A stretch of DNA of 15,700 nucleotides. Source: a virus. The position numbers and the translations under genes are program-made. Every line of letters starts with the position of its first letter. Positions within the stretch are counted from its first letter, which is position 1. The notes beneath the pieces are model-generated. The model was not told the origin of the DNA, did no database searches, and saw only the letters and a list, made by a program, of their open reading frames with translations. Shown piece by piece: positions 657 through 15,700 of this stretch. The stretch is taken from the IMG/VR virus record IMGVR_UViG_3300017923_000002, positions 1-15,700 of that record; one strand, given 5' to 3'.

Positions 657-698
657 TCCGCGCTGTCCTGGAGCGACAAACACAAGGAGGGAACCATC

Positions 699-943: not shown

Positions 944-955
944 CAGGGGGCCGGG

Positions 956-1561
956 ATGGACAAATTCCAAGACATTGAAAAAGCCAAGATCAAAATCATG
1001 GGGAAAAACGGACAGGGAGTTTATGTTGGGAATAACCTTTTCTTGACCGCCGCGCATTGCATCAATTTTAAGACTTCCGGTTCTATGGTTCTTGGGGATC
1101 ACTTCATTGAAGACATTGAGATCCAGGGGCAAAGGTTCCGCGTTGCGCCTTGGGCGATTGAACCAATAAGCGATATTGCCGTTCTTGGACCTTTGGATGA
1201 TCAGGTTTTCCCGGACGACGCAGATCGTCTTGAAGACTTTTGCGAAGATTTGAATCCGGCTTTGATCAACACGGTAGAACCGGAGCTTTTCCAGGAATTC
1301 GAGATCCACGTTTTCAGCCATGAAGGGGGCCAAGTACCAGGGAAGGGGGAAGTTTGCAGTCCTGGTTCAAAGTCCCTGTTCATCGAAACAAAGGATGAAA
1401 TTAAGGGCGGAACGTCGGGCGGACCCATAGTTGACGAGTCCGGGGGATTGGTGGGGATCGTTTCGAACTTTTCCGGGAATGACAATACGGGAGTTCATCC
1501 AAGACCGCATTTGACTTTACCGCTTTGGGTTCTCCGTAAATTAGAAGGGGCCGCTTTATGA
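956..1561 (+). CDS. Trypsin/chymotrypsin-fold (S1-like) serine protease, cytoplasmic, protease domain only
   Basis: Catalytic triad motifs in canonical order: LTAAHC (His), SDIAVL (Asp), GGTSGGPIV (Ser). No signal peptide is apparent. The stop overlaps the parA-like start (ATGA). Confidence 0.8.
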   Translation: MDKFQDIEKAKIKIMGKNGQGVYVGNNLFLTAAHCINFKTSGSMVLGDHFIEDIEIQGQRFRVAPWAIEPISDIAVLGPLDDQVFPDDADRLEDFCEDLNPALINTVEPELFQEFEIHVFSHEGGQVPGKGEVCSPGSKSLFIETKDEIKGGTSGGPIVDESGGLVGIVSNFSGNDNTGVHPRPHLTLPLWVLRKLEGAAL

Positions 1562-2178
1562 TTATCGCCGTATGTTCTGAAAAAGGCGGCACAGGAAAAA
1601 CAACACTGGCCGTCAATCTGGCCGTCCATTTGGCTGATCAGGGCTTTACTTTGATTGACGCTGACCGCCAAGAGTCCGCGTACCTATGGGCCAAGATCCG
1701 CGCCGACGCCGGGATCAAGCCAGAGATACAAACCAAAAGGATACACAAGGCAACGCTGCACAAAGAGTTGACCGGGAACGCGGTAATTGATTGCGGTGGT
1801 AGAGATTCCGAAGTCCTACGCTCCGCGCTCCTGGCCGCTGACCTTGTGTTGGTTCCAAGCCGACCGTCGCAATTTGATCTTTGGTCACTTGAAAGCATGA
1901 ACGATTTAATCGCCGACGCCGGGGGATTTAACCAAGAATTGAAAGGGATCGTCGTTTGGAACCAGGCCGCCACTAATCCAGGAGTTCACGACGATCAAAC
2001 CGCCGCCAAGCTTGTCCGGGATCTGGAGAGCCTTGACCTGGCCGGGACGGTTCTTCGTTCGCGGGTTGCCTATGCAAGATCCGCATCTGAGGGCCAAAGC
2101 GTTGAAGAGTTCGAGCCACGGGGAAAGGCCGCCGGGGAGATATCAAGCTTATTCCGGGAGATTATGAAATGGGTTTGA
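1558..2178 (+). CDS. parA: ParA/ParF-type (type Ib) partition ATPase
   Basis: Deviant Walker A at the N-terminus (CSEKGGTGKTT), LIDADRQ, and Walker B-like VIDCGG. The 206-aa size is typical of ParF-class proteins. Confidence 0.85.
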   Translation: MIIAVCSEKGGTGKTTLAVNLAVHLADQGFTLIDADRQESAYLWAKIRADAGIKPEIQTKRIHKATLHKELTGNAVIDCGGRDSEVLRSALLAADLVLVPSRPSQFDLWSLESMNDLIADAGGFNQELKGIVVWNQAATNPGVHDDQTAAKLVRDLESLDLAGTVLRSRVAYARSASEGQSVEEFEPRGKAAGEISSLFREIMKWV

Positions 2179-2456
2179 AGAGGAAACCAAAGGATGAACA
2201 AGAGTTTATCGAGCAGGGGACGAACCAGGACCAGGACCAAGAGCAAGATATACATCTTTGGCCTGAGCCTTGGGACGAGTATCGGGCCGGGCCGAAGAGC
2301 TTCAATATCCGACTGGAAGCCGAAGACTACGCAATGCTTCGATGGTATTTCGAGGAGCACTCCAAGGCCAAGAGCCTACAAAAATTGATCAAGGGCATAA
2401 TAAGAAAGGAACTAACTGATAAGATTGACGATTTGAAGAAAAATGGGGAAATTTAA
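2169..2456 (+). CDS. Ribbon-helix-helix ParG-like centromere-binding/partner protein
   Basis: Overlaps the parA-like gene by 10 nt. Has a basic then Q/D/E-rich flexible N-tail followed by a KSFNIRLEAEDYAMLRWY beta-strand/helix pattern typical of RHH (CopG/ParG) proteins. Confidence 0.6.
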   Translation: MGLKRKPKDEQEFIEQGTNQDQDQEQDIHLWPEPWDEYRAGPKSFNIRLEAEDYAMLRWYFEEHSKAKSLQKLIKGIIRKELTDKIDDLKKNGEI

Positions 2457-2476
2457 AAATTCATCTTATGTATCCC

Positions 2477-2505
2477 TTGACTTGTACAGTTTAGTGTAAT
2501 AATAT
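2477..2505 (+). promoter_or_regulatory. Sigma70-type promoter
   Basis: TTGACT (2477-2482), exactly 17 bp spacer, TAATAT (2500-2505). GGAGG lies downstream at 2521-2525. Confidence 0.7.
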
Positions 2506-2533
2506 TTTAGTCAACACAACGGAGGTGCTGACT

Positions 2534-3253: not shown

Positions 3254-3268
3254 ATTGGAAGTGAAGCT

Positions 3269-3502: not shown

Positions 3503-3505
3503 AGC

Positions 3506-3814
3506 ATGATAGGAGAAAAAATTTATTCTTGCCGGGTAAGATTGCAATCAGGCCAAGAGGAAAACCTGTTTGTCCATGCCGAAACAGAAGAAGAGGCCAA
3601 GTTCGCCTTGACTTCTGATCCCAACATTGAAGTCCTTAATGTCTTGCCTTTTTTGGGGTTCGATAAAGTTATGGGCCGGGGTACTTCGTCGCCGCGTCTC
3701 TTGATCAACGCCGCTGGATTCAAGCGTTGGGCTGAAAGCTCCGTTGGTGGTTACAAGGGGCTGGACGTCGCCGACAAGGTGAAGGAACTGATTGATTCCA
3801 GGGTGGTTGGATAA
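3506..3814 (+). CDS. Hypothetical protein (102 aa)
   Basis: AGGAAGGGG RBS upstream of the ATG. Co-oriented and tightly spaced with the upstream gene. Confidence 0.5.
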   Translation: MIGEKIYSCRVRLQSGQEENLFVHAETEEEAKFALTSDPNIEVLNVLPFLGFDKVMGRGTSSPRLLINAAGFKRWAESSVGGYKGLDVADKVKELIDSRVVG

Positions 3815-3820
3815 AAGAAA

Positions 3821-3848
3821 GCCCTGAACCGAAAGCCGGGATCAGGGC
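3821..3848 (+). terminator. Hairpin after the operon end; weak terminator candidate
   Basis: GCCCTGA (3821-3827) / TCAGGGC (3842-3848) 7-bp stem with a 14-nt loop. No T-tract follows. Confidence 0.3.
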
Positions 3849-3862
3849 GGGGAACAGGACAT

Positions 3863-3941
3863 CATATTCCTGACTTGGTGGTACTTGTCAGAATATGGCT
3901 TTCCTTCCCCTTTTGTCAATTCCCCTGGTTCCGGCATAACT
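3863..3941 (+). promoter_or_regulatory. Imperfect inverted repeat (operator candidate) plus a putative promoter for the primase gene
   Basis: CATATTCCTGAC (3863-3874) and GTCAGAATATG (3887-3897) pair with a 1-nt bulge. TTGTCA (3913-3918), 17 bp spacer, ATAACT (3936-3941). Confidence 0.35.
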
Positions 3942-3965
3942 TAAAAGATATGCTGGAGATCCGCC

Positions 3966-6491
3966 TTGTCTGAATCCGCAATCGACAAATTCCGATCTGA
4001 ACTTGAATCGTTCGGTATATACCCGACCGAGATCATACCCGATGGACAACTTCACAGGTGCTCCGCGCGCGACGGTGATCCGCAAGATGAGGCCGGATGG
4101 TATGTTCTCCATAATGACGGGAAACTTTACGCCGGGGCTTTTGGATCTTGGCGGTCAGATGTTTGGGAAACGTGGTGTTCTAAGCAAAAGCACCTATCCA
4201 ATACCGAGAAGCGCAATCGGAAAAAGTTTATCGCGCAAGCCAAGGCCAGGTTTCAAGAGGCCAAAGCGGAACGCCGCGCGCAAGCGGTGGAGAAAGCGAA
4301 GGGTATCCTTTCCAAAGCGCAAGCCGCCGAAAATCATCCTTACCTTGCCAATAAGCAGATCAAGTCTTTTGGTTTGAAGATATCCAAGCGGGGCGATCTT
4401 CTGATCCCGGTTCATGATCTTCAGGGCCGCTTGTTTGGTTTGCAGACGATAAATTCCGAAGGCGACAAGAAGTTCATTACAGGTTCCGATATCTCCGGGC
4501 ATTTCTGCAAGATCCCAGGGGATGAACAGCTTATCATCTGCGAAGGATACGCGACCGGGGCCAGTATTCACGAGGCGACCGGGGGGACGGTGTTTTGTGC
4601 TTTCAATGCCAACAATTTGAAGCCGGTTGCCGCTGCGATCCGTAAAGCATACCCAAACGAAAAAATCATAATCGCCGCCGACAATGACCAGTTCACAGGG
4701 GCGGACCCGCTGCATGGTGCGCCGGAGAACCCAGGGAAAACCAAAGGGGAAGAGGCCGCGCGCTGGAATGTTTGCTTCTTGACCTGGCCGGAGTTTGAAG
4801 AATCAGACCTGGCCGACAAGCCAACAGATTTCAATGACCTGCATGTTCGCTATGGTTTGGAAGCCGTCGCCGCTGCGATCCGGGCCGCCGTACATATCAA
4901 GGCCGCGATCGAGCTTGAAGACGGGAAGATGATTGAAGAGGCAAACAAGGTTGAAAAGATCCTTGGCCTCAAGAATGTTGACATCTTTTGCCGCGGGCAA
5001 ACCATCGTCCGACCTATCTTGACGGAAACCGGAACCTTTTCGGAGATCAAGCAAAAAAAGAAGACGCCGAAGATCCATGAAGTGACCCAAAGTTATTTCA
5101 GGGGGCTTTGTGGCAAACATTGCCGATTCCTGAAGCGGAATAAAGACGGGGATCACTACGAGCAGAATCCGCCGCGATATATCGCCGAAGAATATCTTTC
5201 CCGCGTTGGTGAATGGAACCTTCGGACCCTGGCCGCGATCATTGAGGCACCAACAATGAGGCCGGACGGTTCAATCTTAGATAAGCCAGGATATGACCCG
5301 GATACCTTTCTTCTCTACTGGCCGAACGAAAAATTCTTTCCCATTAAAGACAAGCCGACCAAAGACGACGCACGGGCCGCGCTGGACGTTCTCCTGGATC
5401 TGATATCCAGTTTCCCGTTCGTAGATGATGCTGATCGTTCCGTCGCTCTGGCCGCTATTCTTACGCCGCTTGTCCGTCGTGCAATGCCTATTGTTCCAAT
5501 GTTTGGTTTTACCGCGCCGACGCCGCGAACAGGCAAAAGCCTTTTGGTGGATATCGCTTCCATGATCTGCACAGGGAAGAGGATTCCAACAATGGCGCAA
5601 GGATCAACAGATGAAGAGCTTGAAAAAAGAATTGATTCGTCAATCATCCGCGGGGATAACCTGATCAATATTGATAACGTCGAACGCCGAATAAAATCTG
5701 AACGCCTCTGCCAGTTTGTGACACAAGAATCGTCCGTTACCAGAATTTTGGGGGAATCAAGAAACGAAACCTTGCCTTTGATTCTTACGATTTTCAGCAC
5801 GGGAAACAATCTTGCTTTTGCCGGGGACATAAAAGAAAGGGTTCTGTATTGCCGTTTGGATGCAAGATGTGAACGACCGCAGGAAAGGCATTTTGACCGG
5901 GATCTTTTCGAGTACATACCGGACAACAGGCCGAAGATAGTCCACGCCGCCTTGACCTTGCTTCGAGCTTGGGTTTGCTCAGGTGAGAATCCAAACATAA
6001 GCCGTTCAGACTTCACGAAATGGGATGCACTTATCCGAGGTGCGCTCTTGTGGCTGGACCAGGCGGACCCTTGGGATACGTCCGAAGTGGTGCGGGAAAC
6101 AGATGTTTACGCGCAGAATATGCGATCCTTCTTTTCTATCTGGCATGAAACCTTTGGTGAAAGAAGCGTGAATGTTCAGGAGATAACCAGGGCCGCAGAT
6201 AATGACAATGAGCTTCAAGACGTGCTTTACGCGATAGCCGGGAGACATGGGAAGTATGATCAGAAAGCCTTGGGCTATGTTCTGCGAAGCAATAAACACA
6301 AGATTTTCGACGGACTTCAGCTTGTCCATGATGGGACCAAAGGCCGGAACAAGATCGTTCACTGGAAAATGGTTGATATGCACGGGCCGCAGCAAAAATC
6401 TGAAAAGGTGGTTCAGTTGCCGACCAGGGCAAACCAAGCACAAAAACCAACACAAGGGCCAGGCGGGAAGAATGATATCGAAACCATATAA
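3966..6491 (+). CDS. Replicative primase-helicase: TOPRIM (DnaG/P4-alpha-like) primase fused to a C-terminal P-loop NTPase
   Basis: TOPRIM motifs LIICEGYATGASIHEATG and IIIAADNDQ. N-terminal GWYVLHNDGK..GAFGSWRSD resembles P4-alpha/plasmid primases. Walker A-like APTPRTGKSLL followed by NLINIDNVE. TTG start with GGAGA 7 nt upstream. Confidence 0.85.
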   Translation: MSESAIDKFRSELESFGIYPTEIIPDGQLHRCSARDGDPQDEAGWYVLHNDGKLYAGAFGSWRSDVWETWCSKQKHLSNTEKRNRKKFIAQAKARFQEAKAERRAQAVEKAKGILSKAQAAENHPYLANKQIKSFGLKISKRGDLLIPVHDLQGRLFGLQTINSEGDKKFITGSDISGHFCKIPGDEQLIICEGYATGASIHEATGGTVFCAFNANNLKPVAAAIRKAYPNEKIIIAADNDQFTGADPLHGAPENPGKTKGEEAARWNVCFLTWPEFEESDLADKPTDFNDLHVRYGLEAVAAAIRAAVHIKAAIELEDGKMIEEANKVEKILGLKNVDIFCRGQTIVRPILTETGTFSEIKQKKKTPKIHEVTQSYFRGLCGKHCRFLKRNKDGDHYEQNPPRYIAEEYLSRVGEWNLRTLAAIIEAPTMRPDGSILDKPGYDPDTFLLYWPNEKFFPIKDKPTKDDARAALDVLLDLISSFPFVDDADRSVALAAILTPLVRRAMPIVPMFGFTAPTPRTGKSLLVDIASMICTGKRIPTMAQGSTDEELEKRIDSSIIRGDNLINIDNVERRIKSERLCQFVTQESSVTRILGESRNETLPLILTIFSTGNNLAFAGDIKERVLYCRLDARCERPQERHFDRDLFEYIPDNRPKIVHAALTLLRAWVCSGENPNISRSDFTKWDALIRGALLWLDQADPWDTSEVVRETDVYAQNMRSFFSIWHETFGERSVNVQEITRAADNDNELQDVLYAIAGRHGKYDQKALGYVLRSNKHKIFDGLQLVHDGTKGRNKIVHWKMVDMHGPQQKSEKVVQLPTRANQAQKPTQGPGGKNDIETI

Positions 6492-6492
6492 T

Positions 6493-6782
6493 ATGCGGGT
6501 GATACGCGGGTGATGCGGGTGATGAAATTTTCGCATGACCCGCGTGCTATCTTCAGTGAATACAGTTGTTTATAGAAATTGCGGGTGATGACGGGTGATC
6601 AATGAACTCTTAAGGACTTTTTGAAATGGTTTTTTATATTCAACAGGGAAAAAACATATATATAAATATAAGGGGAGTGTTCTGATACCCCGCAATGACC
6701 CGCATAACAATACAAGTATCTGAAATGTATATCAATACGCCGCGGGTGATGGTTTTTCGTATGACCCGCACATGACCCGCAC
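6493..6782. other. Origin of replication: iterons flanking an AT-rich unwinding element
   Basis: GCGGGTGAT at 6495, 6506, 6515, 6581 and 6742 (degenerate ACGGGTGAT at 6591). The related motif in opposite orientation, ATGACCCGC, at 6535, 6695, 6761 and 6772 (degenerate ATACCCCGC at 6685). AT-rich core about 6601-6670. Immediately downstream of the primase-helicase gene. Confidence 0.75.
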
Positions 6783-6794
6783 ATGAGGAATTTT

Positions 6795-7136
6795 ATGTCT
6801 GGTTTGATCTCCTACCTTGAACGCCATTGCCTGATCGTTTGGTTTGCTCCGAATGAGGGCATCAAGGTTGCCGGGTTATCGCAGCTGGAACCAGGCACAC
6901 GGGATAGGCTCCGGGGAATGATGAAGACGCGCAGGGCTGAACTTTTGGATACCGCGCCGGTGTTGGTGAGCCACGACGAAGAGGCCGGGGAATATGTCCT
7001 GGAATATGCAGATGGTTCAATCCGGTTCGCTTATGCTCCTTTGTTGGATGGACCGGGGGTTGATCCTGAGCGGTGGAAACGGGTTTTTGGGGAAACTGTA
7101 AAGCAGGGGGAAGAGGTTTATGAATACGAAGTATAA
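6795..7136 (+). CDS. Hypothetical protein; the N-terminus resembles a TubC_N-like docking motif
   Basis: GAGGA lies 5 nt upstream of ATG 6795 (ATG 6783 is the alternative). LISYLERHCLIVWFAPNEGIKVAG...RDRLRGMMKTRRAELLD resembles that helical docking pattern. Confidence 0.5.
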   Translation: MSGLISYLERHCLIVWFAPNEGIKVAGLSQLEPGTRDRLRGMMKTRRAELLDTAPVLVSHDEEAGEYVLEYADGSIRFAYAPLLDGPGVDPERWKRVFGETVKQGEEVYEYEV

Positions 7137-7350
7137 GATCTTGCAGATCGTCGCGCCTACTGTCCCAATGGTTGCCGTTCATAAGGATGAAGACGTGGAA
7201 TTCCCGATTCCTGTTTCAATTTGGGCATTGATTGAAGAGGAAGATGGATATCAAAGGATCATTGGCTTTAGTGCTGGCGAATTTATGGATTCATGCGAAG
7301 ATGCAGGGAACTTCGTTCGATATGAAGAGGCGGAAAAATGGGAGAGTTAG
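7120..7350 (+). CDS. Small strongly acidic hypothetical protein (76 aa)
   Basis: G-rich RBS upstream. 16 D/E versus 6 K/R counted by eye. Overlaps the upstream gene by 17 nt. Confidence 0.5.
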   Translation: MNTKYKILQIVAPTVPMVAVHKDEDVEFPIPVSIWALIEEEDGYQRIIGFSAGEFMDSCEDAGNFVRYEEAEKWES

Positions 7351-7370
7351 GCCGTCCTAACTTTGTTTTT
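7346..7370 (+). terminator. Short intrinsic terminator candidate
   Basis: GTTAGG/CCTAAC 6-bp stem with a CCGT loop, followed by TTTGTTTTT. Includes the stop codon. Confidence 0.45.
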
Positions 7371-7460
7371 GGTTAACGGATTCAGGGCCAGGTTGACAAG
7401 GCGGGGGTGAAAGGCTTCCCACGAAGGGTTTCAACTTGCAAGCCGGGGGTTTCGCCTTCT

Positions 7461-7491
7461 GGTTTGGTTCGGTTCGGTACGGTTTGGAACC
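7461..7491. repeat. Helically phased GGTT/GGTA repeat array A
   Basis: GGTTTGGTTCGGTTCGGTACGGTTTGGAACC. GGTT at 7461, 7471 and 7481 (10-bp phase), with GGTT/GGTA at 7466 and 7476. Shares GGTTCGGTA(c/t)GGT with array B. Confidence 0.7.
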
Positions 7492-7523
7492 ACAAATAAA
7501 GTCCAGAAGATAAGGTGGATATC

Positions 7524-8006
7524 ATGTCAGAAAAGCCACGGGATACGCAGGGACGGTTCACAAGGTCAAATCCAGGGGGGCCGTCTAAGGAGAAGACGCC
7601 GAAGGATATCCGGGATCTGATTCGCAAGATGGAAGACGGGCATCTGGACCGCCGCCGTCGCATGGCAAAATTGATTGAAGAGGGCCGCGAACTCTTGGGG
7701 GTTTGTGATCCTGAAGAAATAGCAGTCCAGGTTCTTGAACATGACATTGCCACGAACCTTGCCATTGAACGGGTGATCCTGGAGCACGCGAACGAACGGG
7801 AAGATCTGATCGACGAAAGCGGACAACTGATTCCCGCGCTTTCAACTAATCTCTTGAAGTACCAAGAGGCCAAGAGGAAGTCACTGATCGAGCTGAACAG
7901 GATATACGCGCGCCGCCGGGAAGAGGATCGGGCGGACAAAATGACGCGGGACGTCGCGGACATCATCCTGGACGACCAGGGGGGCGACAATGAAGACGAC
8001 GAATAG
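7524..8006 (+). CDS. Small terminase subunit candidate
   Basis: Its position is upstream of terL. The N-terminal GRFTRSNPGGP motif resembles the GxF..NPxG motif seen in many proteins encoded upstream of terL. Has a coiled, charged central region and an acidic C-tail. AAGGTGG lies 5 nt upstream of ATG 7524 (GTG 7515 is the alternative). Confidence 0.5.
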   Translation: MSEKPRDTQGRFTRSNPGGPSKEKTPKDIRDLIRKMEDGHLDRRRRMAKLIEEGRELLGVCDPEEIAVQVLEHDIATNLAIERVILEHANEREDLIDESGQLIPALSTNLLKYQEAKRKSLIELNRIYARRREEDRADKMTRDVADIILDDQGGDNEDDE

Positions 8007-8175
8007 GTGTTCCCACTGCGGGGCCGAGATCGACCGCCGCCGGGGTTATTGTCTGGAATGTGAACGTCGCCTTGGGGAACTGGATCTGGAAACCATCGTC
8101 CGGGCCTTGGCACGTCTGCCAGTGGAGAAACGCCGCGCGATCGTCCGGGGCCTGAACCTGGAGTTTGGCCGATGA
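7990..8175 (+). CDS. Small zinc-ribbon protein (CxxC-x11-CxxC)
   Basis: CSHCGAEIDRRRGYCLEC. Overlaps the TerS-like gene by 17 nt, and its stop overlaps the terL start (ATGA). Confidence 0.5.
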   Translation: MKTTNRCSHCGAEIDRRRGYCLECERRLGELDLETIVRALARLPVEKRRAIVRGLNLEFGR

Positions 8176-9833
8176 GATTCACAGCCGACCAGGTTCGCAA
8201 GTGGAAGGACGGGGCCGCCGGGTTCGAGCAGTGGATAAATGATATCCAGCCAAGGATCATATCTCCCAGGGGCGGGTTCCAGGTATTTGAGTTCGCCGAC
8301 TTCCAGCGGGACGCGATACGCCGGGCCTTGCAGGTTGACCAGGACGGGAACTGGAAGTTCGGGACCATCGGGTTCAGCTTTCCGCGCAGACATTCCAAGA
8401 CGACCTTGAACGCGCTTCTGGTTCTATGGCGGTTCACGCTTTGGCAAACCGAAAACATCAAATGTATGGCGAATTCCGAACGTCAATCTATCTCCGTTGG
8501 CTTCCAGACCCTGAAATCCATCATCCTGAACACTCCGTCGTTGGTTGCTCAGATCGGAAGGGATAACGTCCGTTCATACGAGATCAGATACCCAAAGCTG
8601 CAAAACCTGATTGAAGCCGTTTCCCTGAACATATCCAGCCTATACGGTGAGCGGATTACCGTCGGTTGGGTTTCCGAGATCCACGCCGCGCCGTCTGAAG
8701 AGCCGATGCAAGTCCTGGCTTCCAGCTTGGGCGATTCCCTGAACTCTTGGCTTTTGGTTGATTCTACGGTGGACGCAGTGGGCGGGCCGCTTCATAGGAT
8801 GGAACAGCTGCAAGAGTCCGGGGAAGATCCGACGGTGTTCATCTATCGCATTGAATACGCGGACCTGGCCGAAGCCTTGGAGAAATCGCCGCCTTGGATA
8901 CGCCGGGACTGGTTGAATTCCAGGGCCAAACAGCTTTTGCCTGCCGTCTTTGCTACGCAACATCTGAACCAGAGGGCCGCCGCTGCGAACAACTTGTTTG
9001 CGATCCCGGACATTCGCGCTTGCCAGGAAGACGACGTTCCGAATCCGATTCCAGCCGCTTCATTGGATAGCATGTTCCAGGGGCGGAAATACGTTTGTGG
9101 TGGTGGCCTGGACCGCGCTTTCTTTGGTTCAATCCACGGGGATAAGACGATCTGGACGACGGTTGCCAAGGTTGCGGACCCTGAGAGCAAAGAGCCGGAA
9201 TACTGGATCTTGAATCAGCAAAATATCCTTGGATCTTTGGGGCGGGGGATCAAGAAGGCGATCCGCGAGGACATGGACCGTTTCAAGCTGAAGAACATAT
9301 CCCTGGAATCCTACAATTCGCAGGACATATTCACATGGTGCCTTGAGCAAGGATACCCGGCTGAAGTGATCAGTCCGACCAGTACCACGCAAGCGAACGC
9401 CTTCCCGGAGCTTTATCGTTTGGTTAAAGAACATCGTCTGCGGTTTTCTTATGAGTTAAAGGGCCTGGCCGATGAAATGGAAACATTCGTCTATGAGCTG
9501 AAGAACGGGATTCCAAAGTTCGGGTGCGACAAGTGGCACGACGACCGGATTTATTCCTTGTGTTGGGCCGTCTACGCGCTGCGGAACAAGGAACTGGCTA
9601 CCTATGAGCTAAAGGACATTCACTGCAAGTCCAGGTCTCCGAACGCGCATCTTTGCTACCTGAGACAAGGGGATCTGATCTTGCCATGTTCAAACGAATG
9701 TCCAGCACATTACCACGTTCTGAAGATGTATAACCAATACAGGGAAAGCAACATTGAATCCGAAGCGACGCTGCCGGAGTTTTTTCGGGGAATGGTGAAG
9801 GTGGCCGGGGTGAAGTCATACAAGATGATTTGA
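8172..9833 (+). CDS. terL: Terminase large subunit
   Basis: Walker A-like FPRRHSKTTLNALL (the xRxxxKT terminase style), Walker B-like ITVGWVSE, and an RNaseH-fold nuclease-like GGGLDRAF...DDRIYSLCWAVYAL. The size and the position upstream of the portal both fit. Confidence 0.85.
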   Translation: MRFTADQVRKWKDGAAGFEQWINDIQPRIISPRGGFQVFEFADFQRDAIRRALQVDQDGNWKFGTIGFSFPRRHSKTTLNALLVLWRFTLWQTENIKCMANSERQSISVGFQTLKSIILNTPSLVAQIGRDNVRSYEIRYPKLQNLIEAVSLNISSLYGERITVGWVSEIHAAPSEEPMQVLASSLGDSLNSWLLVDSTVDAVGGPLHRMEQLQESGEDPTVFIYRIEYADLAEALEKSPPWIRRDWLNSRAKQLLPAVFATQHLNQRAAAANNLFAIPDIRACQEDDVPNPIPAASLDSMFQGRKYVCGGGLDRAFFGSIHGDKTIWTTVAKVADPESKEPEYWILNQQNILGSLGRGIKKAIREDMDRFKLKNISLESYNSQDIFTWCLEQGYPAEVISPTSTTQANAFPELYRLVKEHRLRFSYELKGLADEMETFVYELKNGIPKFGCDKWHDDRIYSLCWAVYALRNKELATYELKDIHCKSRSPNAHLCYLRQGDLILPCSNECPAHYHVLKMYNQYRESNIESEATLPEFFRGMVKVAGVKSYKMI

Positions 9834-9840
9834 GGGAAAC

Positions 9841-10377
9841 ATGATCATACTACAAGACACAAGAGAACAGCGACCGTTCACCTTTGAGCGGTTCGACGAT
9901 GTAATGGTTCAGGCTGAAGGGTTGCCGGTGGGCGATTATTCGATCCCTGGTTTCACTGATCGGGTGGGGATCGAGCGCAAGGAATTGAACGACCTGATCG
10001 GGTGTTTCACTTCAGAGCGGGAACGGTTCGAGCGTGAGCTTTCCAAGGCCAGGCATTTTGAGCTTTTTTGTATCGTGGTTGAATCCGAGCTTTCCGACCT
10101 GGCCGACGGAAATTACAGATCCGAGATGAACCCGGCATCCGCGATTCAAAGTATGGTTGCCTTTATGGTTCGTTATCGGGTGCCGTTTCTGTTCTGCAAG
10201 GATCGACGCGGGGCCGAATACATGACGTATTCACTTTTGACGAAATACGCGCGGGAATTAGAAAAACGATATCAGCACATGACTAAGCACTGTTTCAGTG
10301 AAGCTGAGGCCGAGAAACAGCTTATTGGTTTGCAAGGTAAGATGCAGGGGAAAAAGTCGAATGTGAAACGAGCGTGA
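9841..10377 (+). CDS. ERCC4/XPF-Mus81-type structure-specific nuclease
   Basis: DTREQ...VGDYSI...GIERKELNDLIGCF matches the ERCC4 signature GDx(n)ERKxxxD. GAGGGA RBS upstream. Confidence 0.75.
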   Translation: MIILQDTREQRPFTFERFDDVMVQAEGLPVGDYSIPGFTDRVGIERKELNDLIGCFTSERERFERELSKARHFELFCIVVESELSDLADGNYRSEMNPASAIQSMVAFMVRYRVPFLFCKDRRGAEYMTYSLLTKYARELEKRYQHMTKHCFSEAEAEKQLIGLQGKMQGKKSNVKRA

Positions 10378-10402
10378 AATATCTACCTTGGAAGGGTAAA
10401 GC

Positions 10403-10618
10403 ATGTATGACGACGAAATTTTGGTGGGCCTGGACGAGATCCGGGTTTTTATGAGACGTGGAAGGCGAACGGTTTTGAAGATGTTACAGAACGGGGAAAT
10501 CCCTGCAAAGATGGTTCATGGTGCATATATGACCACGAAATCAAGGATCATTGCATGGCTGAACGATCAGCCAGTGGACAAGGTAACGAATAACCACGTC
10601 AAGGAACTGAAGAGATAA
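10403..10618 (+). CDS. Excisionase/AlpA-like HTH DNA-binding protein
   Basis: VGLDEIRVFMRRGRRTVLKMLQNGEIPAKMVHGAYMTTKSRIIAWL has the typical small winged-HTH layout. Confidence 0.6.
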   Translation: MYDDEILVGLDEIRVFMRRGRRTVLKMLQNGEIPAKMVHGAYMTTKSRIIAWLNDQPVDKVTNNHVKELKR

Positions 10619-10630
10619 CGAATTGACCAT

Positions 10631-10772
10631 TGAACCAAACGGTTGGGTTCGGTATGGTACATGATAGAGTCAACCGGGTGGAAACCATACGGTTGCAAAC
10701 GGTACCGAACGGTTCCAAGTGGTACCATATAGAACCAAACCAAACCAGACCAGGCGAAACCATATAGAACCA
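10631..10772. repeat. Helically phased AAC|GGT(T/A) repeat array B, plus a 14-bp direct repeat
   Basis: GGTT/GGTA at 10641, 10651, 10691, 10701, 10711 and 10721. Decamers ending in xAC run through 10631-10770. GGTACC at 10701 and 10721. ACCATATAGAACCA at 10724-10737 and 10759-10772. Confidence 0.75.
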
Positions 10773-12289
10773 TGCTATTTCAAAGCAAGGCTAAGGAATT
10801 AACTGATATCACATATCAGGCCGCAATATCTCAGGTGAACAATGAGCGCAAGGCCGAAGTTCGTCGCCGTCTGGATATGTACCACGACGACCAGGTGGAC
10901 TATCTCCGGGACGCGCTCCGCCGGAACTTCCAGAACCCGAAGGATTTGACGCCTTGCTTTATCAATATCGTCAAGAAGATCGTCGATAACCTGGCTATGG
11001 TTTATATCCGCGACGCAAGCCGGGACGTCGAGGGTAAGGAACGCGACCGGGAAATCTTCGCGGAAATCACGCGGACCAGTTCTTTACCCATCAAGCTGAA
11101 GCTGGCTTCGCGGTACACAAAACTTTTGAAATCCGTGCTTCTCCGTCCGGTTTGGAGAAATGGAAAGATGGATCTGGACGTCCTGACCGGCGACGTGGTG
11201 GACGTCGTGAGCGGGGATACGCCGGAAGACGTTCGTTCCATTATGGTTACGCATTTTCCCGAATCGAACCAAAAAGAAGACCTGGAATATACGCGCTGGA
11301 CGCCGGAAACCGTCGAGCGGTTGAACTATCGGGGCCAGGTGATCGAATCAGATCCGAACCCCTACGGGATCTTGCCGTTTGTTCCATGTTGGGACCGAAT
11401 CCCGACGTCTGACTTTTGGTTGCCGGGCGGGGATGATCTGATCGTCCTTCAGGAAGCCATAAACGAAAAGCTGACCGACCTACTTTATACGCTCCGTATG
11501 CAAGGCTTCGGTGTTGGTTGGGCCAGGGGCATGGGGGAAAATGAACCTTCCCTGGTAGGGCCTGGCACCATGTTCAACTTGCCAGAGGAAGGGGCGATCG
11601 GGTTTGAGTCAACCAAGGCTCCGATTGATCAGATCGTTGGCGCAATCGACAAGCTGATCAAGTGGGCCGCGATATCGAACGGGCTTCCCGCTGGATCTCT
11701 GAGCACCGAACCGACGGACGAATCCGGTGTTTCCAAGATCGTATCAAACCGGGAGCTGGACGAACGCCGCCGGGATGACGTCGCGCTTTGGGAGCAATAC
11801 GAGCGGAACCTTTTCGACGTATTCAAGATCGTTTGGAACGTACACAATCCGGGCCGCAAGATCTCCGAGTCGTCTTCCCTTTGGTTAGACTTCTACGATC
11901 CGAGTCCGCAGCAGGACCAGGCCAAGCAAGCCGAAACCTGGACCAAACTTCTGGCCGCCGGAGTGATCAGCCGGGTGGATGTCATTTTGGAGAAAAACCC
12001 GGATTTGAAGAGCCGGGACGAAGCCAAGGAATTCCTAAAAGAGATCGAGCAGGAACAAGCCGACTTCGCGCAGCCGGTGAACCTTGAGGATCTTCTGAGA
12101 GCCAAGAGCCTGAACGTATTACCGCGCGGGGTGATTATCAAGGAATTGGTACGCCGGGGGATTATCTCCGAAGATATTGATCCGGTGGAAGTGGAAGCCA
12201 TGTTTGCAAGTGAGAACCGGACCAGCTCCGCTTTTCCGCTGCGGACGACTGCACAAGACCGGGCCGCTTCATTGAACACGGAAGGATAA
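10772..12289 (+). CDS. Portal protein (putative)
   Basis: 505 aa, located downstream of terL and upstream of scaffold and MCP. The call rests on position, size and composition only. No SD sequence precedes the ATG. Confidence 0.6.
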   Translation: MLFQSKAKELTDITYQAAISQVNNERKAEVRRRLDMYHDDQVDYLRDALRRNFQNPKDLTPCFINIVKKIVDNLAMVYIRDASRDVEGKERDREIFAEITRTSSLPIKLKLASRYTKLLKSVLLRPVWRNGKMDLDVLTGDVVDVVSGDTPEDVRSIMVTHFPESNQKEDLEYTRWTPETVERLNYRGQVIESDPNPYGILPFVPCWDRIPTSDFWLPGGDDLIVLQEAINEKLTDLLYTLRMQGFGVGWARGMGENEPSLVGPGTMFNLPEEGAIGFESTKAPIDQIVGAIDKLIKWAAISNGLPAGSLSTEPTDESGVSKIVSNRELDERRRDDVALWEQYERNLFDVFKIVWNVHNPGRKISESSSLWLDFYDPSPQQDQAKQAETWTKLLAAGVISRVDVILEKNPDLKSRDEAKEFLKEIEQEQADFAQPVNLEDLLRAKSLNVLPRGVIIKELVRRGIISEDIDPVEVEAMFASENRTSSAFPLRTTAQDRAASLNTEG

Positions 12290-12292
12290 GCC

Positions 12293-12634
12293 ATGTCATT
12301 TTACCATAATGAAACAGATCTTTTGACCGGGGAAGGGACGCTTTCCGTATCCTCTGGTTACAACAGGCATCAACTGAAGATCGAAGCCTACAATTCAAGC
12401 GGGGAAGTCGCGGACGGTGTTTCCGCTTATGTCTCCGTTTCGGGCCGGGTTTCAGGGGCCACGGGGTTTGATCCTCTTGGAGAGATCCAGCTTTACAGTG
12501 GAAGGCAGATTTTGAAGATCAACGCCAAGGTTTCGGAATTAAAATTCCAGCCAAAGGACTTGACCCAGGAAGGACCGCCGGACGGTTTCCCTTCAGGTTA
12601 TTCATATAAAGTTTTTTGGAGAGCACTAGACTAA
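12293..12634 (+). CDS. Hypothetical structural-module protein (113 aa, beta-rich)
   Basis: GGAAGGA RBS upstream. Located between the portal and scaffold genes. Confidence 0.5.
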   Translation: MSFYHNETDLLTGEGTLSVSSGYNRHQLKIEAYNSSGEVADGVSAYVSVSGRVSGATGFDPLGEIQLYSGRQILKINAKVSELKFQPKDLTQEGPPDGFPSGYSYKVFWRALD

Positions 12635-12666
12635 TCCGCCGCCGGGCGTAAATCGGGGGGTTGATC

Positions 12667-13089
12667 ATGTCACAAGATCCGAATCAGAACCAGCACGTCG
12701 CCGCCGACGATACAGGCGCAAACGACCAGGGCCAGAACCAGAACCAGGGCCAAAACCAACACGACGGGCACGCCGCCGATAAGGGCGAAAAGTCGGTTCC
12801 GTATGCGCGCTTTCAACAGGTTAACGAACAAAAGAAAGCTGCAGAAGGAACCCTGCAGGAGTTGGTTGACGAATTAAAGCAGGATATCCCGGAGGATATG
12901 CAAGACCTGGTTCCGAACGGATTGAATCCGGCTGATCAAGTCCGCTGGATTAGAAATGCCATGAAAAAGGGCCTTTTCTCCCAGGGCCAGGCGCAAGACG
13001 GGCCAGACCCGAAGCGAGCCGGGGGGAAGCCGCCGACGGATTTTGAGGGCATGAGTCCACAATCCATCATGGCGCAAGGATACAAGTAA
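12667..13089 (+). CDS. Scaffolding protein (putative)
   Basis: Immediately upstream of the MCP gene. Q/N/D-rich disordered N-terminus, then VPYARFQQVNEQKKAAEGTLQELVDELK, a helical motif typical of phage scaffolds. GGGGGG lies 6 nt upstream of ATG 12667 (TTG 12661 is the alternative). Confidence 0.6.
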   Translation: MSQDPNQNQHVAADDTGANDQGQNQNQGQNQHDGHAADKGEKSVPYARFQQVNEQKKAAEGTLQELVDELKQDIPEDMQDLVPNGLNPADQVRWIRNAMKKGLFSQGQAQDGPDPKRAGGKPPTDFEGMSPQSIMAQGYK

Positions 13090-13112
13090 ACAACATCAAG
13101 AGGTGAACTGAT

Positions 13113-14027
13113 ATGTCTATCACTTTGCTTGAAGCTGCAAAATTGGTTCAAGATCCGCTGAAACGTGGGGTGATCGAGATCTTCCCGCGCGTATCTCCGG
13201 TTCTGGAACGCTTGCCGTTCTTTGGAGTTAACGGGCAAGCATACGTTTATAACCAGGAAGAAACCCTTCCCGGTGTTGCCTTTCGCGGGATAAATGAAAG
13301 CTATACCGAGTCAACCGGAGTCGTGAATCCGCAGACCGAACGCCTTTACGTCTTGGGCGGAACCAGCAAGGTTGACCGCGCTTTGGTTAAGACCCAAGGC
13401 AACGTCAACAATCTCCGGGCGACGTATGACGGGATGAAGGCAAAGGCCGTTTCCCTGGAATATACCAAGAAGTTTTTCAAGGGCGATAATTCCAGCGACG
13501 TGAACGAGTTCGACGGGCTGGAAAATCGTTTGACCGGGGATCAGGTGGTGGATCAGGGTTCCACGTCCGGGGGCGACGCGCTGACCCTTGCCAAGCTGGA
13601 CGAGATGATCGACCAGGTGCAGGGAACGCCGGACGTTTTGTTTATGAACAAGACGCTTCGCCGGAAAGTCAATACCCTGATGAGATCCGCAGGCCAGGCC
13701 ACGGAAACCGTGAGCGATTCCTTCGGGCGACAAATTCCCGCATACGCCGGAATTCCGATTGCCGTCGTCGAAGAGGATAAGGACGGAAACCTTATTTTGG
13801 CTTTCGACGAAGACAATCCGGGGGGCGGGACCGCCGCGTCCAGTTCCATTTACGCCGTCCGCTTCGGGGCCGCCGAATACGTTTCGGGCCTTCAGGCCGG
13901 TTCAATGGATGTGATAGACTTGGGCCTTGACGTAACTTACTATAAGACCCTGATCGAATGGATCACGGGCTTGGGTGTTTTCCATCCGAAATCCGCCGCC
14001 AGGCTCCGGGGCATCAAAAACGCATAA
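13113..14027 (+). CDS. Major capsid protein (HK97-fold candidate)
   Basis: 304 aa. GAGGTG RBS upstream. The N-terminal pattern LLEAAKLVQDPLKRGVIEIF...LERLPF..VNGQAYVYNQEETLPGVAFRGINESY resembles a recurrent phage MCP family. Sits after the scaffold gene. Confidence 0.7.
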   Translation: MSITLLEAAKLVQDPLKRGVIEIFPRVSPVLERLPFFGVNGQAYVYNQEETLPGVAFRGINESYTESTGVVNPQTERLYVLGGTSKVDRALVKTQGNVNNLRATYDGMKAKAVSLEYTKKFFKGDNSSDVNEFDGLENRLTGDQVVDQGSTSGGDALTLAKLDEMIDQVQGTPDVLFMNKTLRRKVNTLMRSAGQATETVSDSFGRQIPAYAGIPIAVVEEDKDGNLILAFDEDNPGGGTAASSSIYAVRFGAAEYVSGLQAGSMDVIDLGLDVTYYKTLIEWITGLGVFHPKSAARLRGIKNA

Positions 14028-14040
14028 TGGGGGTTAAACC

Positions 14041-14460
14041 ATGATTGATAATGATCTGATAATGAAAGACGCGGGTTTGGTTGCCAGCTCCGCAGCCGCC
14101 ACGGTGGGCGGGGAAGCTCAGGTGGTGGATGTCGGGGAAGGCATCGTCAAGGGCGAATTGGTGGTTGACGTGACCGCGATTGAAATCGCCGACAATGACG
14201 AGTTGTTCAAGATCAGCTTGCAGGGTTCAAGCAAGTCCGATTTCGCCGACACATTCGAGGATTTGGTGATCCTGGAGCTTGGGGCCGCCGAAGTGTTGGG
14301 CGGGGACCAGGACAGTACCACGGGCCGCTATGTGGTACCATTCCGAACCGAACGGAACCAAACCGTTTATGATCAGCTTCGCGTTTATACGACTGTAAGC
14401 GGAACCGTCGGAACGGGGATCAACTTTTCCGCGTACCTGCGACCGCAGACAAAGCAATAA
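14041..14460 (+). CDS. Capsid-associated (decoration/cement-like) protein candidate
   Basis: 139 aa, directly after the MCP gene. Beta-rich; motifs GELVVDVTAIEIADNDELFKISLQGS. Assignment is by position only. Confidence 0.4.
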   Translation: MIDNDLIMKDAGLVASSAAATVGGEAQVVDVGEGIVKGELVVDVTAIEIADNDELFKISLQGSSKSDFADTFEDLVILELGAAEVLGGDQDSTTGRYVVPFRTERNQTVYDQLRVYTTVSGTVGTGINFSAYLRPQTKQ

Positions 14461-14483
14461 ACCTTCAGGGTTTATATATATCG

Positions 14484-14591
14484 GGCAAGGGGTGAGTGCC
14501 TTGCCATTGCCGGCAGTTTTTCTCGCGTTTACTGCCGGCTGTTATCGGCCGCCGATTGATCGGGACATGACCAGGCGGAGAAAGTATGTCC
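14484..14591. promoter_or_regulatory. Cluster of four dyad symmetries/hairpins in the long spacer
   Basis: GGCAAGG/CCTTGCC (14484-14505). GCCGGCAGT-13 nt-ACTGCCGGC (14509-14539). ATCGGC-C-GCCGAT (14544-14556). GGACAT-17 nt-ATGTCC (14563-14591). Confidence 0.5.
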
Positions 14592-14660
14592 TGATCCGGG
14601 ACCGGAGATCCCGAAAACGGGCCGCGCGCCTTCTCCAGCTTCACGCTTCCTTCCTTTGGT

Positions 14661-14696
14661 AAAGGGCCGGGGTTTTTCCCTGGCCTTTTGCTTTTG
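14661..14696 (+). terminator. Rho-independent terminator
   Basis: GGCCGGGG/CCCTGGCC stem (one G-U pair) with a TTTTT loop, followed by TTTTGCTTTTG. The upstream AAA can extend the stem. Confidence 0.7.
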
Positions 14697-14834
14697 TCAA
14701 TCCTTCCAGTTGGTTATCTCCATTCACACAAGCCGTATTTTCCGCCTTTTGGGTTTGACCCGACCTGGAACACGGGGGACGGGAAAATTTTTGCTCAAAT
14801 CGAAAATTTGGGCGACTTTTTTTTGATTTTCCTA

Positions 14835-14863
14835 TTGACAATAGCCAACACAACATTCATAAT
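14835..14863 (+). promoter_or_regulatory. Sigma70-type promoter of the recombinase operon
   Basis: TTGACA (14835-14840), exactly 17 bp spacer, CATAAT (14858-14863). Upstream A/T tracts include GAAAATTT at 14783 and 14802. AAAGGGGGA RBS before ATG 14890. Confidence 0.7.
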
Positions 14864-14889
14864 GCTATCAACAAACAAAGGGGGATCAT

Positions 14890-15573
14890 ATGAAAGCAGT
14901 TGCATATCTTCGGGTTTCGACGCGGAGCCAGGGTGACAGTAAGTTGGGGCTGGAATCACAACTGGACCAGATTCAAACCTATTGCCAAAGGCAGGGCCTG
15001 GAGCTGGCCGCCGTTCATCAAGATGTTATCTCCGGTGGTTCGCCTTTGGATAAGCGGGACGGGTGGCTGGATGCAATGGCCGACCTGGAACCTGGAGATC
15101 AACTTGTCGTCGCAAAACGGGACCGAATCGCGCGCGACACATTGGTTTCCGCCTTGGCTGAAAAATCCATCCAGGACAAAAAAGCCAGGATCGTTTCCGC
15201 TGCGGGTGAAGGCACAAACGACGAAGATCCGACTTCGGTTCTTATGCGAAAGATCCTTGACGCCTTTTCCGAATACGAACGCTTGCAGATCCGGGCCAGG
15301 ACCAGGGGGGCCTTGAAAGCGAAAAAGGCCAGGAACGAAAAAACGGGCGGGGACGTTCCCTTTGGTTATGACGCCGACGAAAACGGACATCTGATTCCTA
15401 ACCAAGAGGAACAGCTTGTCATTGCCGAAGTCCTGGATCTTCGGGACCGGGAAGGGTTCAGCTTTCAAAAAATCGCCGACTTTCTGAACGACAAGGGGAT
15501 CAAAACCAAGACGGGAAAACACTGGAATCGCCAAAACGTAAACGGTTTATATAAGAGGGTTGCCAATGGGTAA
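14890..15573 (+). CDS. Serine recombinase: resolvase-type catalytic domain plus a truncated recombinase domain, with no zinc-ribbon or coiled-coil
   Basis: AYLRVSTRSQ holds the catalytic Ser. Also VAKRDRIARD, the E-helix YERLQIRARTRGAL, then VPFGYD...FQKIADFLNDKGIKTKTGKHWNRQNVNGLYKR, typical of the first part of the large-serine-recombinase RD. The protein ends at 227 aa. Confidence 0.85.
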   Translation: MKAVAYLRVSTRSQGDSKLGLESQLDQIQTYCQRQGLELAAVHQDVISGGSPLDKRDGWLDAMADLEPGDQLVVAKRDRIARDTLVSALAEKSIQDKKARIVSAAGEGTNDEDPTSVLMRKILDAFSEYERLQIRARTRGALKAKKARNEKTGGDVPFGYDADENGHLIPNQEEQLVIAEVLDLRDREGFSFQKIADFLNDKGIKTKTGKHWNRQNVNGLYKRVANG

Positions 15574-15700
15574 ACGCATAGAGGATTCACTTGCAGCACA
15601 AAGGTTGATCAGGAAATTGGAAAATCTTCCCGAACATCGGAGAAGGAAATTGATCGGAGAGCTTGAAACAGGGGAACTTGCCATGCCTGAAAACAGGGAC
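15566..15700 (+). CDS. 5' part of the junction-spanning HTH gene (same gene as 1-306)
   Basis: ATG 15566 overlaps the recombinase stop (ATGGGTAA). The frame continues through 15577 into position 1. Confidence 0.65.
   Translation, partial: MGKRIEDSLAAQRLIRKLENLPEHRRRKLIGELETGELAMPENRD
15578..15700. repeat. Terminal direct repeat, copy 2 (wrap-around of positions 1-123)
   Basis: Identical to 1-123 and lies inside a coding frame, which favours circular wrap-around over a physical DTR. Confidence 0.97.

Follow-up and report, generated by a model that had tools for sequence, protein, structure and literature searches.

The viral DNA analysed here, a stretch of 15,700 nucleotides (positions 1 to 15,700 of IMG/VR record IMGVR_UViG_3300017923_000002; hereafter the window), carries a phased array of short repeats in the 153-bp spacer between a small helix-turn-helix gene and the portal gene. 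What purpose might such an array serve within a packaging and head module? Small DNA-binding proteins that act cooperatively and coat arrays of short repeats are well known from plasmid centromeres, operators and packaging sites. A sequence-only reading of this DNA had offered three possibilities: a partition centromere, a pac or cos site, or a control region for late head genes. All three survive the analysis presented below, with control best fitting the positions of the array and of one of its two further copies. The repeats most likely bind a small DNA-binding protein encoded by the element itself, for control of packaging and head genes, for plasmid segregation, or for both.

A capsid-encoding, tail-less, plasmid-like element

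The two ends of the window overlap exactly over 123 bp, and the genome of 15,577 bp is therefore complete and either circular or circularly permuted. All confidently called genes lie on the + strand. They encode a serine recombinase, a second HTH_17 protein, a trypsin-like peptidase, a 206-aa ParA, a 95-aa protein (o95), an 841-aa Toprim primase-helicase with an EGYATG motif, a 163-aa terS-like protein, a 61-aa zinc-ribbon protein, TerL, an ERCC4-type nuclease, the 71-aa helix-turn-helix protein HTH-71, the portal, two small proteins, the major capsid protein and a 139-aa protein. No tail genes were detected in the 15,577-bp genome. The window is a capsid-encoding, tail-less, plasmid-like element, similar to the capsid-forming satellites of the literature by gene content only. 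The terS-like gene (7515..8006, + strand, probable ATG at 7524) is assigned by its position before terL; its product gave no Pfam or PDB match and is conserved across the family, including relatives that are devoid of arrays.

Portal homologues with 50-57% identity are numerous and many are found on contigs of ~15-16 kb. Those with a named organism all belong to the Desulfobacterota (Desulfobacteraceae, Desulfosarcina, Desulfonatronum or Desulfarculus). Two relative contigs of ~15-16 kb encode head and connector genes together with an integrase or primase, and are free of tail genes. The element that hosts the array belongs to a large family, as yet undescribed, whose members measure ~15 kb and come from sulfate-reducing Desulfobacterota. 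The window DNA had no match among GenBank phages and PLSDB plasmids, TerL had none among phage records, and searches of metagenome contigs, one with a portal profile and one with the array pattern, found nothing. When viral contigs were scanned with a 14-base pattern, most of the DNA recovered was unrelated; re-screening of the loci yielded three more relatives.

The spacer before the portal gene is a lattice of pentamers

The array-bearing spacer, site B (10619..10771, no strand assigned), extends from the HTH-71 stop codon to the portal ATG in one 5-bp register throughout. It contains 21 GGT or ACC triplets, as compared to a window mean of 4.9 (sd 2.4) and to 12 in the runner-up region, and one register modulo 5 holds 18 of the 21, where the shuffle maximum is 8. 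Measured against 2000 dinucleotide-preserving shuffles of the spacer, Fourier power at period 5 reached z = 17.5, a value that none of the 2000 equalled, and periods of 10 and 10.5 were not significant as Fourier fundamentals. Autocorrelation within site B peaked at lags 5, 10, 25 and 35 (z = 3.6, 5.6 and 6.7 for lags 5, 10 and 35, respectively), the strongest short-range peak being at 10 bp. The array is real, and lies far beyond chance in both its period-5 signal and its single register. Its unit is the pentamer GGTTY (RAACC on the other strand), held in strict 5-bp register, and the decamer pattern is the second harmonic of this unit. The periodicity that had been noticed from the sequence alone holds against shuffled controls, but the phasing by helical turns (10 or 10.5 bp) that had been read into it does not, as the true fundamental is exactly 5 bp.

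The spacer can be divided into three parts. B-left (10641..10660, + strand) is a shorter forward copy of the repeated element and comprises four contiguous forward pentamers, GGTTG GGTTC GGTAT GGTAC. B-mid (10691..10726, no strand assigned) carries GGTTGC, GGTACC, GGTTCC and GGTACC (GGTWSC) at exact 10-bp spacing and includes the palindrome CGGTACCG; TRF reports a repeat period of 20 for it. B-right (10719..10771, - strand) is a reversed element of ~34 bp, GTGGTACC ATATA GAACC AAACC AAACC AGACC, followed by ATATAGAACC, which abuts the ATG. It is the best-conserved portion of site B, and its core (10719-10754) is a reverse-oriented copy of the element, 18-53 bp before the portal ATG. Superimposed on these parts is a 14-bp direct repeat, ACCATATAGAACCA, with + strand copies at 10724..10737 and 10759..10772, 35 bp apart, the final base of the second being the A of the portal ATG. 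All coordinates given by the sequence-only reading proved correct: this applies to the 14-bp repeat, to GGTACC at 10701 and 10721, and to the GGTT or GGTA starts at 10641, 10651, 10691, 10701, 10711 and 10721, to which starts at 10646 and 10656 can be added. Its statement that most decamers end in AAC, TAC or GAC applies to just 9 of 15. Similarly, its description of an array filling the spacer is correct as to the register, which is unbroken, but across 10661-10690, where the register is kept, there are few motif matches.

Putative, weak promoter-like elements overlie B-left (10630..10670, + strand). TTGAAC (10630-35) and TATGGT (10653-58), separated by a 17-nt spacer, match the sigma-70 hexamers at 8 of 12 positions when read by eye, which is below the threshold of our consensus scan. 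Further promoter-like elements read by eye on the + strand are CATGAT (10660-65) and TGATAGAGT (10662-70); the hexamer yATGAT is common to all four spacer types and also falls below the scan threshold. The consensus scan found no consensus sigma-70 promoter at site B or at site A, described below. The portal gene (10772..12289, + strand) is the first gene after site B and, as had been noted before, lacks a Shine-Dalgarno sequence: its SD:anti-SD pairing of -2.9 kcal/mol is the weakest among well-supported genes, nearly all others ranging from -4 to -12. That an array should interrupt the packaging operon between terL and portal had also been called unusual. This point is weakened because array-less relatives also carry a promoter-like spacer at the same position, AT-rich and 85-163 bp in length.

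Two further copies bracket the packaging and head operons

Copies of the element were also identified outside of this spacer. Site A (7460..7493, + strand; TGGTTTGGTTCGGTTCGGTACGGTTTGGAACCAC) is located 31 bp upstream of the terS-like ATG and spans the positions 31-64 bp before it. Site C (14332..14366, - strand; GTGGTACCATTCCGAACCGAACGGAACCAAACCGT) lies inside the gene for the 139-aa protein, the last head gene, and matches site A at 28 of 34 positions by hand count. The lattice units occur in both orientations. Exactly three in-register lattice clusters were present per genome in five genomes (the window and four copies), and none in 300 shuffled genomes. Sites A, B and C, of which B is the largest, are the sole repeat arrays of the genome besides the origin iterons.

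Site C coincides with coding sequence, and we resampled its synonymous codons according to the genome's own usage. Recodings that matched the element equally well made up 0.3% by identity and 0.02% by motif count, the latter figure to be discounted for ~300 windows because site C came from a genome scan. Furthermore, three distant relatives encode a near-identical peptide, RYxxPFRTE(R/K)N, without the DNA motif of site C. Site C is written via synonymous codon choice and is not an accident of protein sequence. Three properties of the lattice are unusual: its 5-bp unit is unspaced and stays in strict register over ~140 bp, its three copies are dispersed and bracket the packaging and head operons, and one of them is placed inside a gene by choice of codons.

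Conservation of the lattice and its register

Array-bearing relatives fall into four types: strain variants of the window (L121-L126), genomes with a portal of 80% identity (L002, L127-L129, L019, L051 and L099), genomes with a portal of 67% identity (L003/L014/L120), and one short contig (L130). The whole of site B is identical to that of L002 at 136 of 152 positions (89%), as compared to 63-64% at four-fold sites of the flanking genes. Similarly, the right half of site B matches L003 at 45 of 49 aligned bases (92%), where four-fold sites of the flanking genes are at 37-50%. These alignments indicate that the lattice is under purifying selection. Variants of site B contain insertions of 20 bp and 5 bp, sizes that preserve the register, which runs unbroken from the first pentamer to the portal ATG in all four variants. 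At site A a block of 28 bp is 96% identical to L002 amid surrounding DNA that is unalignable. It is the best-conserved stretch of its intergenic region in a three-way alignment, and it is conserved in L003, L123 and L127.

Not every part of site B is retained. B-left is present in the window, L002 and L127 types, whereas the left arm and core are missing in L003, which has AT-rich, promoter-like DNA instead; L130 likewise has AT-rich DNA in place of B-left (44 nt available). The left arm and core are dispensable. The general idea of a large protein-binding array, which the sequence-only reading had put forward, gains support from purifying selection on the lattice, from indels in multiples of 5 bp and from the two further copies in the genome. 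That reading had not recognized that the register is one of 5 bp, that two other copies exist, that the genome is circular or that its origin is separate.

The arrays also have a narrow phyletic distribution. They occur only in a small clade that encodes HTH-71, and distant relatives without HTH-71 have no arrays. The same clade also carries a ParF-like ParA and its ParG-like partner wherever the rest of the genome is visible; contigs of the L003 type are too short to cover the parA region.

Candidate binding proteins

The gene in front of the array, HTH-71 (10403..10618, + strand), encodes a putative Xis/AlpA-like winged-helix (HTH_17) protein of 71 aa and is our leading candidate for the binder of the lattice. 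The earlier description of a small HTH gene at this position is borne out by a Pfam match to HTH_17 (E = 7.5e-5, below the gathering score) and by an excisionase-family sequence pattern that is recognizable by eye. The gene directly abuts site B in every relative, including L127, which has three extra genes upstream. HTH-71 is confined to a small clade, with five clusters among 5.8 billion proteins, and its structure model is of low confidence (pLDDT 67).

Lambda Xis, also an HTH_17 protein, forms a micro-filament on the phased sites X1-X1.5-X2 by cooperative architectural assembly. Our array is similar to this system in that an HTH_17-like gene adjoins it and that its strongest short-range autocorrelation is at 10 bp, and it would likewise be a cooperative architectural assembly. 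However, Xis sites are head-to-tail direct repeats in an att site beside the recombinase core, whereas the units described here are of mixed orientation and spread over three loci. The serine recombinase gene is 4 kb from site B, next to an HTH_17 gene of its own. A role of the lattices as sites for this recombinase is not supported, as all variants share one gene order although some copies are inverted.

A second candidate is encoded next to parA. ParA (1558..2178, + strand, 206 aa) is a ParF-like type Ib ATPase of the small Walker type without an N-terminal HTH; it matches Pfam CbiA and AAA_31 and, among PDB entries, ParF most closely (4dzz, E = 1.1e-12, residues 2-204 against 3-203). Overlapping the end of parA is o95 (2169..2456, + strand), a candidate ParG-like centromere-binding protein and the alternative binder. 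It has an invariant basic N-terminal KRKPK and an invariant KSFNIRL strand that is followed by two helices, and its model, of low confidence (pLDDT 61), shows a disordered tail and two helices after KSFNIRL. An RHH fold is predicted for o95, which gave no Pfam match at E <= 5; homologues number only 3-4. In variants of o95 with only 54-61% identity the KSFNIRL strand is retained, and the pentamer found alongside them is unchanged. HTH-71, o95 and ParA are all restricted to one small clade, and in the collections searched we found no relative that carries just one of HTH-71 and o95. Knowing which protein is the binder would reveal how so small an element is inherited or how the timing or silencing of its capsid genes is achieved, and the lattice would offer a compact and easily tested protein-DNA system.

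Proposed operators over late-gene control regions

Both unit orientations are equally conserved and the fifth base is degenerate, which together argue for recognition of double-stranded DNA by a protein; in particular, units in both orientations speak for double-stranded DNA rather than RNA. Our tentative first choice, to which we give somewhat less than even weight, is a cooperative operator lattice over the control regions of terS and portal. We favour it because sites A and B sit at late-gene control regions, weak promoter-like hexamers overlap B-left, and the right arm of site B constitutes the whole portal leader. A small element-encoded protein would bind cooperatively, with one protomer per 5 or 10 bp, and coat 30-150 bp. 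At site B the coat would cover the weak promoter and the whole leader of the portal and head operon, and at site A the DNA immediately before the terS/terL operon. Site C, which lies at the distal end of the head operon, might act as an auxiliary site for pairing or looping, so that the three sites would jointly keep the packaging and head genes under one control. If o95 were the binder, the same sites would double as plasmid centromeres. What the analysis shows is the lattice with its register, copy number, selective conservation and phyletic link; that a protein binds it, which protein this is and how transcription is affected are inferred.

Auxiliary operators within coding regions and long-range looping are well known, for example from lac O2 and lambda OL-OR. 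ParG at its operator OF and the omega protein provide described cases in which short boxes, arrayed in both orientations, are cooperatively coated and act as operators (PMC3130281). Several observations count against such a role here. The scan found no consensus sigma-70 promoter at site A or site B, and the hexamers read by eye match at only 8 of 12 positions; site A and the core of B-right are oppositely oriented relative to their downstream genes; between site C and the closest gene start downstream there are 520 bp; the HTH-71 gene lies within the operon that its product would control; and the models of both candidate binders are of low confidence. In addition, the contiguous 5-bp unit is shorter than characterised repeats, which are 7-10 bp (PMC3130281, PMC3074162).

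Possible dispersed plasmid centromeres

It is possible, though doubtful, that the three lattices are dispersed plasmid centromeres, with a ParG-like o95 coating them and the ParF-like ParA segregating the 15.6-kb circle; effects on late genes would then be secondary. ParA resembles ParF across its full length, and o95, encoded in overlap with parA, conserves a basic N-terminal tail and a strand-helix-helix pattern. The sequence-only reading had remarked that a centromere is missing next to parA, and indeed no repeats were found near parA in any variant, which leaves A, B and C as the only arrays besides the origin iterons. As in type Ib systems, the repeats form clusters of short, degenerate units, direct and inverted, over tens to ~100 bp, and a small Walker-type ParA is encoded in the same replicon. 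Site C would need no special explanation, because a centromere can lie within a coding region. Known RHH centromeres consist of short degenerate boxes, direct and inverted, over ~100 bp, sometimes with several sets per replicon (PMC3130281, PMC3074162).

The closest comparison is with parH and OF of plasmid TP228, bound by ParG and segregated with ParF. There, an array of ~100 bp with short degenerate boxes, direct and inverted, is cooperatively coated, and one of the arrays doubles as an operator; ParG itself is an RHH protein with a flexible tail that coats arrays of degenerate 4-bp boxes (PMC3130281). The window shares with TP228 a ParF-like ATPase in the same replicon and a small putative partner whose basic N-terminal tail is predicted to be flexible. 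However, the TP228 unit measures 8 bp and combines an ACTC box of 4 bp with an AT-rich spacer of 4 bp, as opposed to the unspaced 5-bp GGTTY, and parH and OF lie directly upstream of parFG, as opposed to sites that are kilobases removed from the par genes, in late-gene control regions and within a gene. For o95, the RHH fold and the binding are predictions.

The omega arrays of pSM19035 occupy the very promoters that drive the partition and copy-control genes. According to the summary of the pSM19035 omega heptads in PMC3130281, there are several sets of unspaced short repeats of mixed orientation that are centromere-like, each at a promoter. The window resembles pSM19035 in having several contiguous, unspaced repeat sets of mixed orientation per replicon and differs in that the omega unit is 7 bp; no homology to omega was detected. 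The phage-like plasmid N15 is similar in that its centromere sites are separate and form no single block by the par genes. Its sites, IR1-IR4, are dispersed. Unlike the pentamer arrays, they are single 16-bp palindromes bound by the type Ia protein SopB (PMC7205306).

Against dispersed centromeres stands their location: characterised type Ib sites adjoin the par operon, whereas the lattices are 2.8-8 kb away from it. The unit length of 5 bp is below the 7-10 bp of characterised RHH-class repeats, and the RHH fold of o95 is predicted. Centromeres would also leave unexplained why the lattice reaches the portal ATG and why HTH-71 always abuts it. A degenerate site near parA may escape our scans.

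Operator and centromere need not be exclusive. One protein might perform two jobs on the three lattices, a ParG-like partner both segregating the 15.6-kb plasmid and, through its coat on the terS and portal control regions, silencing the capsid and packaging genes, which we consider unlikely. If true, plasmid inheritance would be coupled to a lysogeny-like silence of a capsid-forming satellite via a nucleoprotein filament with a register of 5 bp, which is below any characterised centromere repeat.

A possible packaging site

We regard it as quite unlikely that the array is a packaging site (pac or cosB-like) on which HTH-71, with or without the terS-like protein, would assemble and recruit TerL and perhaps the ERCC4 nuclease, marking the DNA for the element's own capsids. 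Cos and pac sites are often directly upstream of terS, as site A is, and site B and HTH-71 belong to the packaging module, with terL/ERCC4 on one side and portal on the other. We also count in favour that lambda gpNu1 has a winged helix, broadly of the Xis kind, as its DNA-binding domain. The left and right arms of site B are inverted relative to each other, and the 30-bp core between them does not differ between type 1 and type 2. This layout resembles the pac of P1, a region of boxed repeats. Sites pacL/pacC/pacR of SPP1 consist of sets of direct repeats across promoters and the start of the terS gene (PMC4737164). Both the SPP1 and P1 sites are like site B in measuring 150-270 bp within a packaging module, with two-arm repeats over promoters and a gene start. 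However, they occur once per genome and their repeats are off any 5-bp lattice, and in SF6/SPP1 the boxes turned out not to drive binding (PMC4737164).

The number of copies further weakens this possibility, since a packaging site is normally unique and here there are three per genome, of which only site A adjoins terS. In distant relatives the same terS-like protein persists in genomes devoid of arrays, L003 lacks the core and left arm of site B, and contig ends fall at the origin repeats rather than at the lattices.

Unlikely alternatives: RNA, replication and slippage

Could the repeats act as RNA instead? The GGUU-rich left arm might pair with the AACC-rich leader and sequester the portal start, which has no SD, or site A might enter into long-range pairing with B-right or C. 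Over 20 nt, B-left shows 85% complementarity to B-right, the minimum free energy of the whole spacer is -46.4 kcal/mol (z = -2.1), and the portal leader is CA-rich and unstructured. However, none of 45 predicted pairs covary, L002 disrupts several of them and the covariation term comes to +2. A fold from the putative transcription start has z = -0.17, and neither Rfam (0 matches) nor a tRNA search gave a match. Since the fifth base is degenerate, an RNA duplex would have a mismatch every five bases, and a duplex has no need of a 5-nt period. With no covariation, no Rfam match, a modest z and no left arm in L003, a structured RNA or leader hairpin is unsupported, and we hold a role as RNA to be very unlikely.

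Replication is a still poorer fit and most improbable. The lattices might be secondary origin iterons for a P4-alpha-like primase, comparable to P4 crr, or a polar fork trap. Satellite origins such as P4 ori/crr and PICI ori have iterons, which are similarly short repeats in both orientations in satellites with an alpha-like primase. The window encodes such a primase with its EGYATG motif, P4 has two iteron loci 4.5 kb apart, which counts in favour, and forward and reverse sets converge on site B. However, the window carries a canonical origin of its own elsewhere, immediately after the primase gene, where at least 10 TGCGGGTGA/TCACCCGCA iterons in both orientations flank an AT-rich core (6493-6786), and the lattices are therefore not the origin. 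Furthermore, L014 has a different, 886-aa replicase and different iterons with the same GGTTY arrays. We thus rejected the lattice as an origin, the arrays being independent of replicase type.

That the array is a pentanucleotide microsatellite of no function, arising from replication slippage, is next to negligible: the copy number of (AACCA)n varies between relatives and the indels are multiples of 5 bp, but the units are degenerate and in two orientations, conservation is far above that of neutral sites, one copy lies inside coding sequence by codon choice, and the same element recurs at three loci. Site B is identical in six assemblies, which is uninformative on slippage because their genomes are 100% identical for kilobases around it. 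A binder encoded by the host or a helper phage, or other functions, share the remaining probability.

Two similar-looking repeat families in other contigs were also set apart from the lattice. Neither the GGTTACC repeats of L008, a Desulfovibrionaceae MAG, nor the GTACCGAA repeats of L082 form a 5-bp lattice; each set lies directly downstream of a rep gene and represents that contig's own origin.

A complete genome with head genes

The first and last 123 bp of the window form an exact terminal direct repeat (1-123 = 15578-15700), and the window therefore represents a genome that is complete, 15,577 bp long, and either circular or circularly permuted. Capsid, portal and terminase are all encoded within this genome, while no tail genes were detectable in it. 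Numerous portal homologues with 50-57% identity were found, many of them on contigs of ~15-16 kb, and wherever the source gives an organism name this organism belongs to the Desulfobacterota. Two full contigs of this kind encode head and connector proteins together with either an integrase or a primase, and neither contains tail genes. Based on the protein matches to the portal together with the relative loci L118, L119 and L008 (a Desulfovibrionaceae MAG), these elements may constitute a family of satellite-like, capsid-forming elements that has yet to be described.

A 27,380-bp IMG/VR contig (3300035547_000130; loci L002, L010, L131 and L134-L136) holds about 1.8 tandem copies of the element, in two different variants. 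Identity to the window is 96% in one part of the contig and about 87% in the other part, and its two copies of o95, the candidate ParG-like protein, are 54% and 100% identical to that of the window. Two strains may truly be joined here as a cointegrate or dimer, or else the contig is a chimeric assembly.

Replication origin, and a probable one in L082

Directly downstream of the primase-helicase gene, whose product is P4-alpha-like and carries an EGYATG motif, an AT-rich core (about 6600-6670) is surrounded by at least 10 TGCGGGTGA/TCACCCGCA iterons, which occur in both orientations. The region at 6493-6786 is a textbook replication origin. Iterons were also observed in L082, an unrelated element whose primase has an N-terminal domain 39% identical to that of the window primase. 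There, about 15 irregularly spaced GTACCGAA/TTCGGTAC iterons lie directly downstream of the primase gene (2040-2290; also in L064, L023 and L020), and they probably mark the origin of that element.

Non-coding regions flanking the late genes

Two terminator-like hairpins (7343-7364 and 7445-7459) separate the last early gene from site A, the copy of the pentamer lattice upstream of the terS-like gene, and the first pentamers of site A serve as the T-rich tail of the hairpin nearer to it (7445-7459). In genomes of the L002 type, which encode an 80%-identical portal, a perfect 9-bp inverted repeat, ACTGTCACA ... TGTGACAGT, with its arms 13 bp apart, was observed upstream of site A (approximately 596-630 in L002 and 3655-3690 in L127). 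This repeat, which is absent from the window, looks like an operator.

At the 3′ side of the head module, a 430-bp non-coding region (14461-14889) contains several hairpins and terminator-like sites. The sole near-consensus sigma-70 promoter within 7000-15700 is also located here (TTGACA-17-CATAAT, 14835-14863), pointing to the recombinase gene. The region is likely to include the early promoter, and the site on which the recombinase acts may lie in it as well.

Putative accessory and regulatory genes

A second HTH_17 gene, which overlaps the serine recombinase gene at its end, crosses the window junction (15566-15700, continuing at 124-306); its product, 105 aa in the strain variant L121, may be a directionality factor or regulator and is a possible further binder of the lattice. 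The trypsin-like peptidase gene (956-1561) overlaps the start of parA in both the window and L121. It is missing from the otherwise close relatives L122, L123 and L124, and thus has the look of an accessory gene inserted into the early operon. Finally, the packaging module includes an ERCC4-type nuclease gene whose position varies among relatives, as it follows terL in the window (9841-10377) and precedes the terS-like genes in L008 (6665-7129), the Desulfovibrionaceae MAG. Its product could serve as a packaging accessory nuclease, for which the HNH proteins of HK97-like phages provide a comparison.
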